Part shown: piece after piece, positions 5,192 to 10,317 of the stretch
Position numbering within the stretch: the first letter of the stretch is position 1
Layout: each line of letters opens with the position of its first letter
IMG/VR virus record: IMGVR_UViG_3300050581_000228
DNA: 22,155 bases
Strand: one strand, 5' to 3'
From: a virus
Lineage: Duplodnaviria > Heunggongvirae > Uroviricota > Caudoviricetes
The notes under the pieces: generated by a model
What the model was told of the DNA's origin: nothing
The model's input: only the letters and a program-made list of their open reading frames with translations
Database searches by the model: none
Made by a program: the position numbers and the translations under genes

Positions 5192-5206
5192 ATGCTGGCG
5201 CAACTC
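5192..5206 (-). promoter_or_regulatory. Operator copy without an obvious promoter
   Basis: ATGCTGGCGCAACTC (13/15), inverted relative to the copy at 5267-5281, 60 bp away. Confidence 0.65.
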
Positions 5207-5263
5207 CGCCATTACAATCGGCCTAGCGGGATCGCCCTAGTCTCGAATTCGCGGGTTTTCTAG

Positions 5264-5292
5264 TTGACGTTGCGCCAGCATCGACGTATCAT
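5264..5292 (+). promoter_or_regulatory. Operator-containing promoter TTGACG-17-TATCAT driving the plus-strand block
   Basis: TTGACGTTGCGCCAGCATCGACGTATCAT; operator at 5267-5281. Confidence 0.8.
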
Positions 5293-5313
5293 TTAGGTAG
5301 AAGGGAAACAAAC

Positions 5314-5478
5314 GTGGAATACGCGAACCGCCTTATCATCGAAACCGCCCGCAAGACCGTGGAGGTTTGCTTGCGGCACCCTTTGACCCTTGCGGAAGTC
5401 TATTACCATTTCGTGGCGCGCGGCAAACGCCCCGCTATGGCTTCTCTTTCGGCAGGGGTGGCGCGCGTTACCTTCTGA
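5314..5478 (+). CDS. Hypothetical protein, 54 aa (MEYANRLIIETARK...)
   Basis: GTG start with AAGGGA RBS, first ORF after the promoter; below the ORF-track cutoff. Confidence 0.6.
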   Translation: MEYANRLIIETARKTVEVCLRHPLTLAEVYYHFVARGKRPAMASLSAGVARVTF

Positions 5479-5505
5479 CACCACTAGCACCCGGAGACCG
5501 CAACC

Positions 5506-5823
5506 ATGATTAAATGTCTCTTGCTTCTGCCGACAAACTACAATGACGGGTCTCCCGTCGAATCGGGCAAGGTAGACTCTTGCCTTGACCGTGTGGATTC
5601 TCTCATCGGCGGCCATACCGTAGACGGCCTATGCGAAGGGGTCTACCGTATGGCCGATGGTTCCTACGCAAGGGACCGAAACCTAAAGGTTTGGGCTTGC
5701 GTCGATGAATCCGCGCTCCCCGCCCTGCGCAGACTGGCGGGAGACTTCGCGGTCGAATTGGGCCAAGAGTCTATCTATTTCGAGCAAACCGCTACCACGG
5801 TCGAATTCGTCAAGGGGCAATGA
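5506..5823 (+). CDS. Hypothetical protein, possibly PII-like/DUF3574-like fold
   Basis: LLP..YNDG...GG.T....G.Y...DG....D...LA......L.QE.IY pattern (recalled, unverified); RBS GGAGACCGCAACC. Confidence 0.8.
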   Translation: MIKCLLLLPTNYNDGSPVESGKVDSCLDRVDSLIGGHTVDGLCEGVYRMADGSYARDRNLKVWACVDESALPALRRLAGDFAVELGQESIYFEQTATTVEFVKGQ

Positions 5824-5830
5824 CAACCAC

Positions 5831-5888
5831 GGGCAGGGATTGCCCGTTTCCATCCCGTCAAGTAAACGGGGCGGAAACCGACAATCCC
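5831..5888 (+). repeat. Intergenic hairpin unit 1
   Basis: GGGCAGGGATTGCCCG start; GGGATTG/CAATCCC base; CCCGT-caagtaa-ACGGG apex. Confidence 0.8.
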
Positions 5889-5906
5889 GCAACGGAGACA
5901 ACCACC

Positions 5907-6107
5907 ATGAAAACCTTCGCCGTAGCTTGCTGCCTTGACGGGGTGTTTTTCGTTTGGAATTGGGATGATTGCGGGTGGGTTTCGGTTTGCGAGAATTGGG
6001 CCGAAACCCTGCCCCGCGCTTCCCGTATGCCGCTAGGCAAGGCGCAAACCTTGCTGGCGCGCCTTGCCCGTCAATTCCCTTGCTGCCCCTCTTTCCTGAT
6101 TGCATAG
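5907..6107 (+). CDS. Hypothetical protein, 66 aa
   Basis: RBS GGAGACAACCACC; ATG at 5907. Confidence 0.7.
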   Translation: MKTFAVACCLDGVFFVWNWDDCGWVSVCENWAETLPRASRMPLGKAQTLLARLARQFPCCPSFLIA

Positions 6108-6116
6108 GGAGCAACC

Positions 6117-6308
6117 ATGTACCGCGCTATCCTGATTCTCTTACTACTGACAACCCCCGCGCTTGCCGACAACCCGCCCCGCTATCACAAGGGCGGGGCA
6201 ACGGTTGCCCGGTTTCACGCAAGCAACCCGAAACCCGTCAAGCAACCGAAACCGAAACCGTCAACCGACCATATCCACTACGTTATCCGATCTTACCACG
6301 TGAAGTAG
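6117..6308 (+). CDS. Small secreted protein, signal peptide followed by DNPPRYH
   Basis: MYRAILILLLLTTPALA-D; paralogous to 9087-9398; RBS GGGAG. Confidence 0.75.
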   Translation: MYRAILILLLLTTPALADNPPRYHKGGATVARFHASNPKPVKQPKPKPSTDHIHYVIRSYHVK

Positions 6309-6347
6309 CCCGCAAGGGATAACCTTTTCACCATTGGAGCAATCACG

Positions 6348-6593
6348 ATGAAGAAGCAACCCCTATTCGACGTGTCTCGTTTCAACCACCTTGCCGACAA
6401 GTACAACATCCCTTGGATTGATCGGATTCCCCTCATCGAAACCGTTTGCTGGGGTAGCAAGGGATGGATTGACGCCGAACTAGCCCGCAAACTGCGCGGC
6501 CGATGGAATGGTTTTCGGCGCAACGGCCAGTACGGGGCGTTTATGGGCGAAGTTATGCGGGCAATCAATTCCCGCGCTTGCGCGGCCGCATAG
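6348..6593 (+). CDS. Hypothetical protein, 81 aa
   Basis: RBS GGAG; collinear. Confidence 0.75.
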   Translation: MKKQPLFDVSRFNHLADKYNIPWIDRIPLIETVCWGSKGWIDAELARKLRGRWNGFRRNGQYGAFMGEVMRAINSRACAAA

Positions 6594-6600
6594 CGGCAAC

Positions 6601-6655
6601 GGGCATGGATTGCCCGATTAGCTCCCGTTGCACGGGGAGCTAATCGGCTAATCCA
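6601..6655 (+). repeat. Intergenic hairpin unit 2
   Basis: TGGATT/AATCCA base (compensatory change); 13-bp perfect stem CCGATTAGCTCCC/GGGAGCTAATCGG. Confidence 0.85.
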
Positions 6656-6689
6656 CAACCACGTTTCACAACAGAGAGGAGCTAGTTCT

Positions 6690-6890
6690 ATGTGCCGCAA
6701 CCGATCCGGCGTAGAGGCAAACCTGCGCGTTTACTACCCGGATGTTTCCATTGTGGACAACGGGGACCACAAGAGCGCGGAATTCGGGGGTGAATTGCCC
6801 CGTAGTTTCGTCGAATCCCTACGGGCAGTCGGGGCAGAGGTTCTGCGCTATTCTCATCGGGGCGTAGTCTCTACCGTTGTCAACTACTGA
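6690..6890 (+). CDS. Hypothetical protein, 66 aa
   Basis: RBS GAGAGGAG; follows hairpin unit 2. Confidence 0.75.
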   Translation: MCRNRSGVEANLRVYYPDVSIVDNGDHKSAEFGGELPRSFVESLRAVGAEVLRYSHRGVVSTVVNY

Positions 6891-6925
6891 CCCGCAACCA
6901 GAAGAGCAACCGGGAGACCGCAACC

Positions 6926-7105
6926 ATGACCCGTAAGTATCTGAGAGTGATTGCCGGCGCGATTGCCGGCATTGCCGACGATTGCGCCCGCTATGCGGCC
7001 GCGCTCGCGCTTGCCGATGAATTGCGCTACCACAACCCGCGCTTTGACCGTTGCCGTTTTCTACTTGCTTGCAAGGCGGTAGACGTAGACGACCCGCGCC
7101 GCTAG
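6926..7105 (+). CDS. Small phage-type protein, 59 aa, NPRFDR.RFL.AC motif
   Basis: MTRKYLRVIAGAIAG...LADELRYHNPRFDRCRFLLACK; RBS GGAGACCGCAACC; missed by the ORF track. Confidence 0.8.
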   Translation: MTRKYLRVIAGAIAGIADDCARYAAALALADELRYHNPRFDRCRFLLACKAVDVDDPRR

Positions 7106-7114
7106 GCGCGGATA

Positions 7115-7172
7115 GGGCAGGGATTGCCCGATTAGCTCCCGTTCACTTGACGGAAGCTAATCAGACAATCCC
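7115..7172 (+). repeat. Intergenic hairpin unit 3
   Basis: GGGATTG/CAATCCC base, GATTAGCT/AGCTAATC stem, CCGT-tcacttg-ACGG apex. Confidence 0.85.
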
Positions 7173-7185
7173 GGAGACCGCAACC

Positions 7186-7356
7186 ATGATTAGACCTATC
7201 ACGATTCGGGGAAACCTAGCCCTATGGTATTCGCCCGATGAACGGGGCTATTACTGGCAAGACGGGCGGGGGTGGGGCAATAGGGTTAGCAGACTCTATC
7301 GGACGAAAGAGGGAGCTATTCGCGCGTATCGCAAGGGGACAATCAGACTTCGCTAG
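7186..7356 (+). CDS. Hypothetical protein, 56 aa
   Basis: RBS GGAGACCGCAACC at 7173-7185. Confidence 0.75.
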   Translation: MIRPITIRGNLALWYSPDERGYYWQDGRGWGNRVSRLYRTKEGAIRAYRKGTIRLR

Positions 7357-7365
7357 GGAGCTATC

Positions 7366-7584
7366 ATGTTCAAATTCAAGGACCGCTATAACCTTGACGT
7401 GGAAACCCCGAAAGAGGTTCCCGTCATTCTGGAAAACGTCGCCCAATACTACCGCGAATCACAAGGCGAATTGGAAAGCGCTTGGCAAGACAAGAGCGCG
7501 GGGAAAGTATGGGAAGACTTCGCGCGGATACTTGACCGCGCGGCCGAATCATGCCGCAAGGCGATTGCCAAGAGACTGCCATAG
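7366..7584 (+). CDS. Hypothetical protein, 72 aa
   Basis: RBS GGGAG; helical protein-like sequence. Confidence 0.8.
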   Translation: MFKFKDRYNLDVETPKEVPVILENVAQYYRESQGELESAWQDKSAGKVWEDFARILDRAAESCRKAIAKRLP

Positions 7585-7600
7585 CAAGGGAACAACCACC

Positions 7601-8230
7601 ATGCAAGCAACCATGAAACGGGGAGACTTTGACCGCGCTTGTGAGCGCGCGATTGCCTACGCGAACCGCAAACAAGGCGGGTTGGAATTGGCCGAACAAT
7701 TCCTAGAGCGCGCCGGGTTTGGCGGGGAATTGTGCGGGATCGAGTCGGTATCTTGCGGGGAGCGCGAATTGCGCTACTTGAACGTTGGCGAAACCTACTC
7801 CCTTACCATCGGGCAAGAGGGAGACGGGGAGGTTTTCTCTTGCTCTTGGGGCGGGTGGTTGGAAGAGGCAGAGCAAGAGCATTGCGAAGAGAATGGGGAA
7901 ACCCGTTGCGGCTATTGCGGGGAGTTTACCCCGGTTGCCGAAGACCGGCACGATACCGTATGCCAACATTGCGGCCGATACGTCGATAGTGGCGAATTGC
8001 CAGAGAAAGGACAAGAGAAAATGGAACCCGAAAACCTTGACGCAATGGACCCCGAAGACTTGCACGCATATTGCCAAGAACAAAGGAACCCCGCGCCCTT
8101 GCGGGAGTATGCCGCAATCAAAGCAAGAGCAATCGACGCGCGCAAGGCGGGGCGTATCCAGCAAGCGCTGCAATGGGAGCAAGCGCTAGACAGACTCTAT
8201 CAGCAATTGCCCGAAGACTTGCAATGGTGA
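7601..8230 (+). CDS. Multi-domain hypothetical protein, 209 aa, central Zn ribbon (CGYC/CQHC)
   Basis: RBS AAGGGA; C-terminal YA..KA.A...R.AG.I..AL..E...LY..LP...W module. Confidence 0.8.
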   Translation: MQATMKRGDFDRACERAIAYANRKQGGLELAEQFLERAGFGGELCGIESVSCGERELRYLNVGETYSLTIGQEGDGEVFSCSWGGWLEEAEQEHCEENGETRCGYCGEFTPVAEDRHDTVCQHCGRYVDSGELPEKGQEKMEPENLDAMDPEDLHAYCQEQRNPAPLREYAAIKARAIDARKAGRIQQALQWEQALDRLYQQLPEDLQW

Positions 8231-8237
8231 ACGGGCG

Positions 8238-8294
8238 GGGCAGGGATTGCCCGATTCGCGCCCGTAGCCTGACGGGCGCGAATCGGTTAATCCC
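8238..8294 (+). repeat. Intergenic hairpin unit 4
   Basis: 15-bp perfect stem CCGATTCGCGCCCGT/ACGGGCGCGAATCGG, 6-nt loop; GGGATT/AATCCC base. Confidence 0.85.
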
Positions 8295-8312
8295 ACAATG
8301 GAGACCGCAACC

Positions 8313-8540
8313 ATGTATACCACAAGAGAATTGAACCCCTTGCACGATAGGCAAGCGCTTCTGTCCGTCGATTCCCTGCGCGTGCTAGTGAACGTGCTAG
8401 ACACCCGCCAAGTCTTCGCGCGGGTTGATTGTCTCGTCTCCCCAGTGAACGGGGCGGGACAACAATGGGTTAGCGTCGATAGACTGTCACAACCACAAGG
8501 GAGCAATCATGCAAACACCCGTTGTATTCAGGGTCGATAG
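8313..8540 (+). CDS. Phage-type hypothetical protein, 75 aa (V.V.D.R..F.RVD.LV.PV.G.G..WV)
   Basis: RBS GGAGACCGCAACC; overlaps the next gene by 32 nt. Confidence 0.75.
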   Translation: MYTTRELNPLHDRQALLSVDSLRVLVNVLDTRQVFARVDCLVSPVNGAGQQWVSVDRLSQPQGSNHANTRCIQGR

Positions 8541-8787
8541 AGAAGGGGAAGTCTTCGCGCTGTTTCCTACTCTTGCGGCCGATCCATCGGGCAATGTCAC
8601 AAGCTATCAGCATATCGGCCAACATTGCGCGGCCGATTACGGGTTGTGCATTGCCAAGAGCAAACCCGCAACCCCCGCGCAGTATGCCGCGCTGGCCGAA
8701 GAGTTGACGGTGCGCGGTTATTCTCTGCGCGTTGTGCGCAGACAATCGGCCGCAATGCGGAAAGCTAGGGGGCAGTATGCGGAATGA
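8509..8787 (+). CDS. Conserved-type phage hypothetical protein (FR....EV.ALFP...SY.H.GQH..ADY...PA....Y..L..EL...GY)
   Basis: Motif recalled from many phages (unverified); RBS GGGAG. Confidence 0.85.
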   Translation: MQTPVVFRVDREGEVFALFPTLAADPSGNVTSYQHIGQHCAADYGLCIAKSKPATPAQYAALAEELTVRGYSLRVVRRQSAAMRKARGQYAE

Positions 8788-8812
8788 TTCCTGCCCCGCG
8801 CCGATGATTGCC

Positions 8813-8846
8813 GCAAGGCGGGGACTAGCTCCCCGCCTTGCTTGTT
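8813..8846 (+). terminator. Putative intrinsic terminator
   Basis: 11-bp stem GCAAGGCGGGG/CCCCGCCTTGC, 7-nt loop, then TTGTT, 25 nt after the stop at 8787. Confidence 0.6.
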
Positions 8847-8961
8847 GCGCGGTAGGCAACGGGCAGGGAGCTAGGCCGATAACCTCCCGCCCCTTCCCGC
8901 CTTGCTGCGCGCCACAATTCGCAAGTAGGCCGCGCCCCTCTCTGCCCCGCGCCCCGCCCGT

Positions 8962-8990
8962 TTGATTCCCGCCCCTTCTCGAATTACTAT
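8962..8990 (+). promoter_or_regulatory. Sigma70-type promoter TTGATT-17-TACTAT lacking the operator
   Basis: Upstream of 9087-9398; the leader holds two 8-1-8 palindromes. Confidence 0.55.
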
Positions 8991-9086
8991 GATAGGCGGG
9001 GAGACTCCCCGCGCAGAACCCGCTAGGCGCAACGGGGCAACGGTTGCCCCATAGTCCTAGCTCCCCTTTACCCCGTAGGTGAAACC

Positions 9087-9398
9087 ATGCGCCTAGCGCT
9101 GTTGCTTGCGTTGACGGGGGCGGTTTGCGCTATTGCCCCCATGTTCGCTCTTGGAGCGAACCCGCCCCGCTACCACAATGCAACGGGGTCTAGCGGGGTC
9201 GATTGTCCCCGCTACTCCCCGCCCGTCGAATACCGCGCCCCCTTGTGGACATTCTACCACTATCCGCGCGGTATCCCGCAAAACAAGTATGATCCGAAGA
9301 CGCCCGGATACCGCTACTACCCTTACTCGATCTATCGGTCAGACTATCCGCGCGACCACTACGACCGCAACAAGTCGCAGCGCTATCCCGTTCGCTAG
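9087..9398 (+). CDS. Secreted Tyr/Pro/Arg-rich protein, signal peptide followed by ANPPRYH
   Basis: Hydrophobic N-terminus; RBS AGGTG; shares NPPRYH with 6117-6308. Confidence 0.7.
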   Translation: MRLALLLALTGAVCAIAPMFALGANPPRYHNATGSSGVDCPRYSPPVEYRAPLWTFYHYPRGIPQNKYDPKTPGYRYYPYSIYRSDYPRDHYDRNKSQRYPVR

Positions 9399-9420
9399 GA
9401 CCGATTGCACCGATCGCGCG

Positions 9421-9451
9421 CCCCTACGATCGACAGAACCGATTGTAGGGG
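9421..9451 (+). terminator. Hairpin after the last plus-strand gene; weak U-tract
   Basis: CCCCTAC-GATCG-acagaac-CGATT-GTAGGGG followed by TTGT. Confidence 0.4.
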
Positions 9452-9459
9452 TTGTGCGG
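9440..9459. repeat. Right arm of the long-range inverted repeat
   Basis: CGATTGTAGGGGTTGTGCGG versus the reverse complement of 4493-4512. Confidence 0.75.
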
Positions 9460-9746
9460 ACGGCAAGGGTCGCGTGCGTGCTAACCGGGCCATAACCGGG
9501 GACAAAAACGAGTAGAATTCTTCGGCCTTCGGGCCAATGGCGGGCCGGCGGCAGTCGGCCCGTTCTCTTGCGGTTGATGCCAGCGGACGAAAGGGCTACA
9601 AGCTGTCGCCCTTTCGGCCGTTGTCGTCAAGTCTTCTCGCAACAGAACGTGACAAGCTCGCGCGGAAACGCGATAGTTTCGCGCATTCTCGCACAGTTTC
9701 GGCCGCTTTGTTTGCGCCGTGTGGCGAAAGGCAAGTTCCCCATCGC

Positions 9747-9962
9747 TTCACCTGGTCGCCCTGGTCAACAGTCTGGTCGTTTCATCTGGTCGCCTGGTCG
9801 CTTCATCTGGTCGCCGATCATGCGCCCGATCTGATTCTCGCCGTGTAGCGAAAAGCAAGCCCCTTCACCTGGTCGGCCGGCCCGCCGATCTGCGCCGATC
9901 CGCCCGACAGGTGCGCCGATCTGCGCGGGCTGGCGAAGCTCGCGGCCTGATTCTCGCCGTGT
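9747..9962. repeat. Non-coding repeat field: 7x CTGGTC (4x TTCAYCTGGTCG), 4x CGCCGATC, 2x CTGATTCTCGCCGTGT
   Basis: TTCAYCTGGTCG at 9747, 9781, 9802, 9864; CGCCGATC at 9812, 9883, 9893, 9914; 16-mer at 9831 and 9947. Confidence 0.85.
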
Positions 9963-10317
9963 GCGGCATTGCTGTCAGGCGCAAGCCGTCAGCCAGGCAG
10001 AGGCGGGCGGAGACCGGCCGTCACCCAGGCGGAAGCCAGAGCGGCCGGCGGGAAGCTCGGGACCGGCAAGAGCGGACGGAAGGGCGGCAAGCGGCGGCCC
10101 GGCCGGCGGCGGCAACGGCGAAACGCGGGATCGGCCGAAGGCTGTAAGCGCCGTCAACTATAGCCCCTAAGCGCCCACGGTCGTAGCCCCGATGAAACGG
10201 CCCCAGCAAGGCAACCACGTCTTGCCGGGGCCAGGGGTGGCCAATCTATGAGGGCGGGGGGCGTGCATCGGCAAACGGGCACGGCCCCGCCCTTGCGCCA
10301 GCCAATGGCCGGCGGCC

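Follow-up and report, generated by a model that had tools for sequence, protein, structure and literature searches.

What is the purpose of a hairpin of about 55 nucleotides (nt) that recurs four times, in four partly different sequences, between the small genes of one phage operon? The question is raised by IMG/VR record IMGVR_UViG_3300050581_000228, a 22,155-nt stretch of DNA (termed here the window) from a virus of the class Caudoviricetes, in which an earlier note, made from the letters alone, had picked out four such units on the plus strand. Here covariance models, structure-blind alignment and comparison with related contigs are used to characterize these units, which belong to a new family of RNA elements that fold in the sense strand, are anchored to the stop codon of the preceding gene and perhaps act on the mRNA of that gene.

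The positions and strand of the four units are confirmed by a 16-mer, GGGCAKGGATTGCCCG, which occurs exactly at 5831, 6601, 7115 and 8238 (n = 4, all on the plus strand); when up to three mismatches are allowed it has seven matches against 0.9 expected, a count reached by none of 100 shuffles. Each unit folds, as had been claimed, into one long hairpin (-31 to -43 kcal/mol; z -4.0 to -8.1), and for every one of them none of 200 dinucleotide shuffles gave an equally good fold. The units, with the stop codons that precede them and their scores under the covariance model R2 described below, are as follows.

5821..5823, plus strand: TGA stop codon of gene gA (5506-5823), 7 nt 5' of unit 1
5831..5888, plus strand: unit 1, in which GGGCA (5831-5835) and TGCCC (5841-5845) make up a mini-hairpin; R2 score 49.8 bits
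5836-5842 paired with 5882-5888, plus strand: outer stem of unit 1, whose inner arm is GTTTCCATCCCGT
6591..6593, plus strand: TAG stop codon of gene gD (6348-6593), 7 nt 5' of unit 2
6601..6655, plus strand: unit 2, with the compensated outer-stem variant TGGATTG/TAATCCA; R2 score 63.9 bits; ortholog behind the gD homologue of contig L073
7103..7105, plus strand: TAG stop codon of gene gF (6926-7105), 9 nt 5' of unit 3
7115..7172, plus strand: unit 3; R2 score 60.2 bits; orthologs behind the gF homologues of L037, L106 and L109
8228..8230, plus strand: TGA stop codon of gene gI (7601-8230), 7 nt 5' of unit 4
8238..8294, plus strand: unit 4, the stablest stem of the four (-42.7 kcal/mol); R2 score 63.3 bits

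Most of the geometry described in the earlier note withstands this closer inspection. The first G of each unit lies 7, 7, 9 and 7 nt past the stop codon (7-9 nt had been claimed), and the hairpins end 16-18, 34, 13 and 18 nt before the next ATG (13-34 nt had been claimed), with an additional in-frame ATG just 3 nt from the end of unit 4; the 3' end of unit 3 directly adjoins GGAG, the Shine-Dalgarno (SD) sequence of the next gene. The stems vary and yet keep pairing, both through compensatory changes within the window (TGGATT/AATCCA in unit 2, and inner arms that differ among the units) and, as is shown below, through covariation in relatives. An alternative pairing of the base, GGGCA-N5-TGCCC, is possible in all four units and is mutually exclusive with the basal stem. 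Only the proposed CCGT-loop-ACGG apex holds in part: it is intact in units 1, 3 and 4, whereas unit 2 forms it only in a register shifted by one. (The apex of unit 4 also resembles type I-C CRISPR repeats, a likeness that was judged coincidental, the inner stems of the other copies being unrelated.) As had likewise been noted, there is no U-tract: the unit tails read CGCAACGG, ACAACCAC, GGAGACCG and ACAATGGA, no T-run occurs 3' of the units, and a consensus scan flagged no plus-strand terminator-like site at them, so that the hairpin-plus-U-tract arrangement of an intrinsic terminator is absent.

A covariance model built from the four window units (R1) matches a 96%-identical strain (L037), the short metagenome contig L073 and several copies in each of four more distant viral contigs (L090, L092, L093 and L094). 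A second model (R2), built from the distant copies only and leaving the window units out, recovers all four window units at 50-64 bits (E-values of 1e-13 to 1e-17), scores the plus strand about twice as highly as the minus strand, and adds copies in L106/L107, L108, L109/L110 and L111. In total, the family comprises 24 distinct copies in about ten related phage contigs; every one of the 24 lies on the coding strand, and each phage carries four to five copies on one strand of one operon. These relatives were found by alignment-based search, a search by single-protein loci having found nothing. Searches with R1 and R2 gave no copy in L033-L036, L088, L089, L091 or L095-L105, none in five complete related phage genomes, and none outside the operon in whole related records. 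Likewise, blastn of positions 5200-9200 against a GenBank phage collection gave no match; exact-pattern scans of viral, genome and metagenome contigs returned almost exclusively single chance matches, the only true copy being that of L073; and no multi-copy match appeared among 185,579 genomes or in the metagenome scan.

Within the 12 distant copies, 15 of 22 base pairs have changed on both sides, and 90.5% of cells are paired as opposed to 36-46% when the partners are slid by one to three columns, with none of 500 shuffles matching the observed value. Because this 12-row alignment had been fitted to the covariance model, the test was repeated on all 24 copies with MAFFT, which is blind to structure; RNAalifold then returned the same helix, with compensatory changes at 15 of 20 pairs. 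Over the 24 copies there are 42 G.U versus 20 A.C combinations (among the distant copies, 30 versus 8), and 15 copies have G.U at one particular rung; this excess of G.U over A.C identifies the sense strand as the strand that folds. A cmscan search of the whole window against Rfam (E <= 1) gave two chance-level matches, both away from the units. The checks that the earlier note had proposed (a covariance model, Rfam and a search of relatives) thus support its suggestion of a new cis-acting RNA family, inasmuch as the structure is repeated and covarying and has no Rfam match.

The consensus of the element is (stop)-N6-10-GGGC-A-N-GGA-U-W-GCCC-G-(13-nt free arm)-loop-(arm')-CGG-N-W-A-UCC. Its helix has about 23 rungs and consists of a conserved 7-bp outer stem; a defect after rung 7, made up of a fixed G.U pair and a symmetric 1x1 mismatch; and an inner stem of 13-15 bp. 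The outer stem covaries at three rungs (N/N', U-A to C-G, and U-A to A-U) while GGA/UCC stays constant, GGA being retained in 22 of the 24 copies. Inner stem and loop are hypervariable, with sequences that are wholly different between phages; despite this complete divergence, the 5' arm keeps a length of 21-26 nt, mostly 22-24, as counted from minimum-free-energy structures.

The 5' GGGC lies outside the long helix and yet is nearly invariant. It pairs with GCCC to form the mini-hairpin mentioned above, in which GGA is part of the loop rather than of a stem, so that the conservation of GGA cannot be explained by its pairing in both structures. Folded by itself, the mini-hairpin is stable in all 18 copies folded (-5.6 to -11.6 kcal/mol), and in most of these copies its loop contains GGA. 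The state in which it coexists with the inner hairpin lies 3-9 kcal/mol above the long hairpin (12.5 in an outlier copy whose predicted mini-fold is non-standard), the long hairpin being the more stable state in every case. A formal pair count over the 12-row alignment found no covariation of the mini-helix, and it is single variants that point to it: a G-C to A-U double change affecting the mini-helix only (GGACA/UGUCC, L092 2796); GGCUA/UAGCC variants in two copies, which restore its pairing; and a stand-alone mini-hairpin, ACGGGCAGGGATTGCCCGT, at L109 6293-6320 (= L110 1521-1548), which lies 6 nt past the gA stop, lacks the rest of the long hairpin and is identical in its first 22 nt to window unit 1. 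The mini-helix is accordingly best regarded as a predicted structure that such variants suggest. In none of the window units can the freed 3' arm pair with the downstream SD over more than 3 bp. Some nearby sequences may be related to the motif: a hairpin at 8856-8892, in the 300-nt non-coding tail of the operon, begins with CAACGGGCAGGGA and pairs differently, and GGGCAACGGTTGCCC, which has CGG in its loop without GGA, occurs twice, within gene gC (6196-6211) and 35 nt 5' of gene 9087-9398 (9030-9053).

In one respect the earlier description needs correcting. It had the hairpins inserted before ribosome-binding sites, whereas across the family they are anchored to the upstream stop: 22 of the 24 copies have their first G 6-10 nt past the stop (mode 7-8) and the remaining two have it 22 nt past, while the distance to the next start varies from 3 to 34 nt and the next gene changes. 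Moreover, hairpins with the same inner stem track the same upstream gene, with different genes downstream; this holds for gD (window and L073), gF (window, L037, L106 and L109) and gI (window, L037 and L109, the last at 9049-9112 with a 1-bp deletion on both arms). The helicase site of a ribosome lies at about +11 from the P site, and the edge of its footprint about 9 nt beyond a stop codon in the A site; this geometry reportedly goes back to Takyar and co-workers in 2005 and to ribosome profiling. Combined with the 6-10 nt spacing, this means that a terminating ribosome has the GGGC strand at the entrance of its mRNA channel and the start of the long helix just beyond it.

Whether a given junction carries a hairpin varies between close relatives, which points to gain and loss. 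A hairpin follows gA in the window and in L106 but not in L073, L109 or L111; that after gF is missing from L108 and L111; and in L106 and runs X2 and X3 the hairpin that follows gA has an inner stem of the unit-3 type. Contigs of related strains are joined exactly at hairpin edges (5817>7115, 7173>6326, 6891>7113 and 7172>6906). In L034, a 146-kb relative without the hairpins, CA-rich tandem repeats fill the matching intergenic slots of the same operon:

L034 1200-1270, 1360-1410, 2437-2470, 3308-3362 and 3634-3702: slots occupied by tandem repeats

These repeats are C/A-rich and free of G (CAACCAC, CAACCCA and CGCAACA units), run into the SD, and could be translational enhancers or rut-like tracts. 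At another junction of the same operon, L090 (4586-4660) and L093 (4281-4354) carry a second, simpler stop-proximal hairpin, with a CTAGTGCGCTCCC.../...GGGAGC.. stem and without the GGGC/GGA base.

A fold in the sense strand, a tie to the stop codon that is precise to the nucleotide, and inheritance with the upstream gene together argue that the elements function on the mRNA and, more specifically, on the upstream cistron. The early mRNAs of T7 and of SPO1/SP82 carry intercistronic RNase III hairpins, and the REP (repetitive extragenic palindromic) and puf/mal intercistronic stem-loops stabilize upstream segments of their transcripts. Their layout is that of the present units: a two-turn helix that lacks a U-tract, keeps its lower stem conserved and its defect in one place, and recurs between small genes of a single host-type transcript. 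By this analogy, the role in mRNA processing or stabilization that the earlier note had listed among its possibilities remains the best fit, at a probability of roughly 0.4: each unit would be an mRNA hairpin between cistrons that shields the 3' end of the upstream one or takes part in its processing. The units would then act in cis, as RNA structures of the polycistronic mRNA that an operon of small accessory genes yields. A stable 3' structure would block 3'-to-5' decay of the upstream cistron and, given where it begins, would leave hardly any RNA exposed between the helix and a ribosome at the stop. Having two full turns of double-stranded RNA, the helix would probably also be a substrate of a double-strand-specific endonuclease (RNase III), whose cleavage would split the long transcript into separately stable pieces, as happens at the T7 and SPO1 early sites; the alternative 5' mini-hairpin might be a co-transcriptional intermediate or a protein site. 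Cleavage, the effect on stability and any role of the mini-hairpin are what we infer from this layout.

Compared with T7 R0.3-R1.3 and the SPO1/SP82 sites, the likeness lies in several hairpins of about 55-60 nt between the small genes of one host-transcribed operon, with a conserved lower stem, a freer upper stem, a defect at a fixed place and no terminator tail; like RNase III sites generally, the units are intercistronic and offer at least 20 bp of double-stranded RNA (about two turns) with an internal defect. The differences are that there is no sequence similarity, that a G.U pair and a 1x1 mismatch take the place of an asymmetric internal loop, that the units have a fixed 7-nt stop distance and a 5' extension giving the alternative GGA-loop hairpin, and that cleavage is here predicted. 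The REP/BIME elements of Escherichia coli malE-malF and the Rhodobacter puf stem-loops are similar in that a stem-loop just 3' of a cistron serves the upstream segment, and REPs near stops are also reported to influence translation. REPs, however, occur in hundreds of copies in host chromosomes and in both orientations, whereas the present elements occur in a single phage operon, always on the same strand and at the same distance from the stop. Several observations tell against a role in protection or processing. Neither a plain stabilizer nor an RNase III site needs an invariant GGA or a conserved GGGC extension outside the long helix, and the defect is a 1x1 mismatch as opposed to the asymmetric internal loop of the T7 sites. 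The elements are, moreover, evolutionarily dispensable (five complete related genomes lack them, and CA-rich tandem repeats can occupy their slots), and the window units are confined to one operon though sister operons share its promoter type; the RNA ends, like the cleavage, are model predictions.

Translational switching, which the earlier note had also proposed, is kept here as a rival reading. The CsrA/RsmE consensus is RUACARGGAUGU (CANGGANG), the core of which is fitted by CANGGAU. Accordingly, the mini-hairpin might be a site for a CsrA-type protein, or for the anti-SD of the 30S subunit, that the long hairpin buries; on binding, the base of the element would switch folds, and translation of the next gene would be controlled with the help of the GGA in that gene's SD, or else host CsrA would be titrated. 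The persistence of GGA while its stem neighbours covary, its location in the loop of a short (predicted) hairpin as in CsrA sites, the stability of that hairpin, an energy gap that for all but the outlier copy a nanomolar binder could bridge, the mini-helix variants and the free-standing copies of L109 and L110 all speak for such a switch, and CsrA is encoded by the host phylum and by two related phages with complete genomes (G005 and G006), the phage proteins having as their nearest named homologues the CsrA proteins of Planctomycetota metagenome-assembled genomes (MAGs), at about 79% identity:

L112 1483-1656, minus strand (G005), and L113 1501-1668, plus strand (G006): CsrA gene (PF02599, 84-88 bits)

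These CsrA-encoding relatives are, however, hairpin-less ones, and tblastn detected no gene for CsrA in either the window or the loci that carry hairpins. Nor does the mini-helix covary formally; the element is anchored to the upstream stop rather than to the downstream SD; the GGA-to-SD distance of 52-70 nt is at or past the known bridging range, in which a second GGA lies within 10-63 nt; and, in a departure from known CsrA/RsmE hairpins, the GGA site is normally buried in a stabler helix. A GGA switch is possible but doubtful, though it is the leading rival. A related and unlikely model is a two-state RNA switch. Since the GGGC strand of the mini-hairpin falls under the ribosome that terminates 7 nt upstream, translation of the upstream gene would decide whether the GGA loop, as a docking site for a CsrA-type protein or the 30S subunit, is shown or buried. 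If true, adjacent cistrons of phage operons would be coupled by a new principle, and the phage might thereby sense or titrate host CsrA. The same proximity to the stop allows that the element modulates termination, recycling or re-initiation of the ribosome poised there, either by bringing the next start near the stop or by stalling, which would lower upstream expression; REP elements within 15 nt of stops have been reported to lower upstream expression in this way. The gap of 6-10 nt equals the classical spacer of recoding stimulators, the GGGC strand is covered by the ribosome as it terminates, and the base of the helix brings the next SD alongside the stop. Each downstream gene, however, has a strong SD of its own, and in two copies the stop is as far as 22 nt away. 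Fusion of adjacent genes by read-through or frameshifting over a unit was considered and dropped, the frames being inconsistent (offsets to the next gene of -1, 0, -1 and +1) and frame-0 stops lying inside units 1, 3 and 4. A device acting on termination is on balance quite unlikely.

The remaining explanations look to DNA or to transcription. The conserved base could be a DNA site at which gene cassettes are exchanged, whether by homologous recombination, in the manner of the PeSL of T4-type phages, or by site-specific recombination, in the manner of integron attC sites. Strain contigs do join exactly at hairpin edges, a hairpin may be present or absent at one junction in close relatives, a unit-3-type inner stem has turned up behind gA, and a serine recombinase (resolvase) gene lies upstream of the operon on the opposite strand (1194-2276), similarly to L109. 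Gene exchange at the units is therefore real, but it is to be expected of any repeated sequence and occurs also at hairpin-free junctions, as in L073. No RYYYAAC/GTTRRRY core is found at the ends of the units, the serine resolvase is the only recombinase and no tyrosine integrase was found, the G.U excess places folding on the top strand rather than on the bottom strand as in attC, no pattern of target-site duplication is seen (CAAC flanks unit 2 only), and there are only four hairpins to about 11 genes; with stop anchoring likewise indicating a sense RNA, a recombination linker seems decidedly improbable. PeSL are composite units of a terminator and an early promoter (PMC2839356, PMC4122927); like them, the units are stem-loops between small accessory genes of hyperplastic regions and coincide with the boundaries of indels and replacements between close relatives, but they have neither a promoter fused to the stem-loop nor a U-run. 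The ESAS repeats (extended start-associated sequences) of Cluster K mycobacteriophages are tied to a downstream gene family and to the start-associated sequence (SAS), which they abut, and have arms of 17 nt (PMC3203893). The present operon resembles them in having a start-associated module, GGAGACCGCAACCATG, in four copies and imperfect inverted repeats, all in one orientation, with a variable spacer and upstream of a subset of genes; the units, however, are tied to the upstream stop and gene, their arms measure 23 nt, and the sequences are unrelated. A transcription signal, be it a U-less terminator or attenuator or a nut/put-like antitermination site, would suit GC-rich hairpins inside an operon, and in protein-dependent antiterminators (Bgl/Sac RAT, ANTAR) a small 5' hairpin overlaps the 5' arm of a larger one, as it does here. 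Because the mini-hairpin leaves the inner stem of 13-15 bp intact, however, it could not abolish a terminator, and the operon itself ends in an ordinary terminator hairpin. The antitermination envisaged in the earlier note finds no support either: there are four units per operon and no U-tract terminators for them to override, and the loop (NGGAU) is unlike the GNRA-like pentaloop that boxB carries on a 5-bp stem, and it comes without boxA. To our knowledge, four nut-like sites within 3 kb (here within 2.5 kb) have no precedent, and a transcription signal is very unlikely. Finally, short palindromic repeats that are patchily distributed and rapidly gained and lost might be selfish miniature mobile elements (MITE- or REP-like) or signals of a single-stranded DNA stage (an Frpo-like promoter or ssi). 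But all 24 copies share one strand, one operon and one stop distance, instead of being dispersed, near-identical and in both orientations; copies within a genome differ by compensated changes; neither target duplications nor a transposase were found; and the genome and metagenome scans gave only chance matches besides L073. The Frpo-like promoter of the earlier note is also unsupported, there being no promoter hexamers and the element being tied to translation stops, and this whole class of explanation is highly improbable. Judged against these models, the family lacks the defining features of PeSL, attC sites, REP/MITE elements, intrinsic terminators, nut sites and ESAS and shares the structural features of an RNase III site. 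What is new is a sequence family that is unusual in being anchored 7 nt past a stop codon and in masking a GGA mini-hairpin; the general type of signal is known from T7.

All four units lie within a plus-strand operon of about 11 small genes arranged head to tail, for which the relevant promoter and start signals are listed here.

5264..5292, plus strand: sigma-70-like promoter TTGACG-17-TATCAT, at the head of the small-gene operon and the sole plus-strand promoter-like site between 4900 and 9600
4048, 5264, 11024, 13486, 14673, 16265 and 21605: positions of the promoter family with the conserved spacer
5493-5508, 6913-6928, 7173-7188 and 8300-8315, plus strand: the four identical copies of the start module GGAGACCGCAACCATG, a repeat family

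A consensus scan found no promoter-like hexamers at or after the units, and the operon is presumably read as a single transcript from the promoter at 5264. It ends (at about 8815-8850) in a hairpin with a T-rich tail, which means that this phage does use canonical terminators. The promoter belongs to a family with eight copies in the window and a conserved spacer (TTGACGTTGCGCCAGCAT...TATCAT), of which only the copy at 5264 drives a hairpin-bearing operon; model searches found no such hairpins in the sister operons that have the same promoter type on the other strand, and the promoter 18-mer had no match in viral contigs. The copies of GGAGACCGCAACCATG provide 16 nt of homology at gene junctions. 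By eye, about six of ten operon genes between 5314 and 8540 end in TAG, an unusually high share for a genome of 58% G+C; recoding is not indicated, since an SD and a start come after each TAG. The product of gI (209 aa, Cys-rich) is a fusion: relatives carry two separate genes, corresponding to an N-terminal zinc-ribbon-like part and the C-terminal 90 residues (L034 2865-3308 and 4229-4480; L106 8025-8426 and 8673-8942). Beyond the operon, a non-coding stretch of about 900 nt between convergent operons (9400-10300) contains three iteron-like direct repeats of a 21-nt unit, CTGGTCGCTTCATCTGGTCGC, at 9739-9814.

The proteins of the window, with the exception of the serine recombinase, are nearly all without a family match; for ten operon proteins, Pfam and PHROGs gave no significant family, and an exact look-up of a 335-aa protein gave no match. 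Homologues of gI are named from Pirellulales MAGs, and the source is taken to be an uncultured phage of Planctomycetota with Pirellulales-like hosts. The window is a portion of a large uncultured phage genome, its relatives in IMG/VR spanning 50 kb to 192 kb; the stretch is present in an anaerobic-digester metagenome run and partially in soil, landfill and wastewater runs. No RNA run was listed as containing it, and run X20, which covers little of the stretch, is probably DNA.

Phages of Planctomycetota have hardly been studied, and this includes how the expression of their many small accessory genes is laid out. The family described here is a clean RNA motif supported by covariation and suited to an Rfam entry. 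It raises the questions of whether phages generally punctuate their early mRNA with sites of the RNase III type, of why a structure should be held so precisely at the edge of the terminating ribosome, and of whether masked GGA hairpins are used by phages to engage the Csr system of the host. Because the elements mark points at which accessory genes are exchanged between strains, they also aid in reading mosaic phage genomes.

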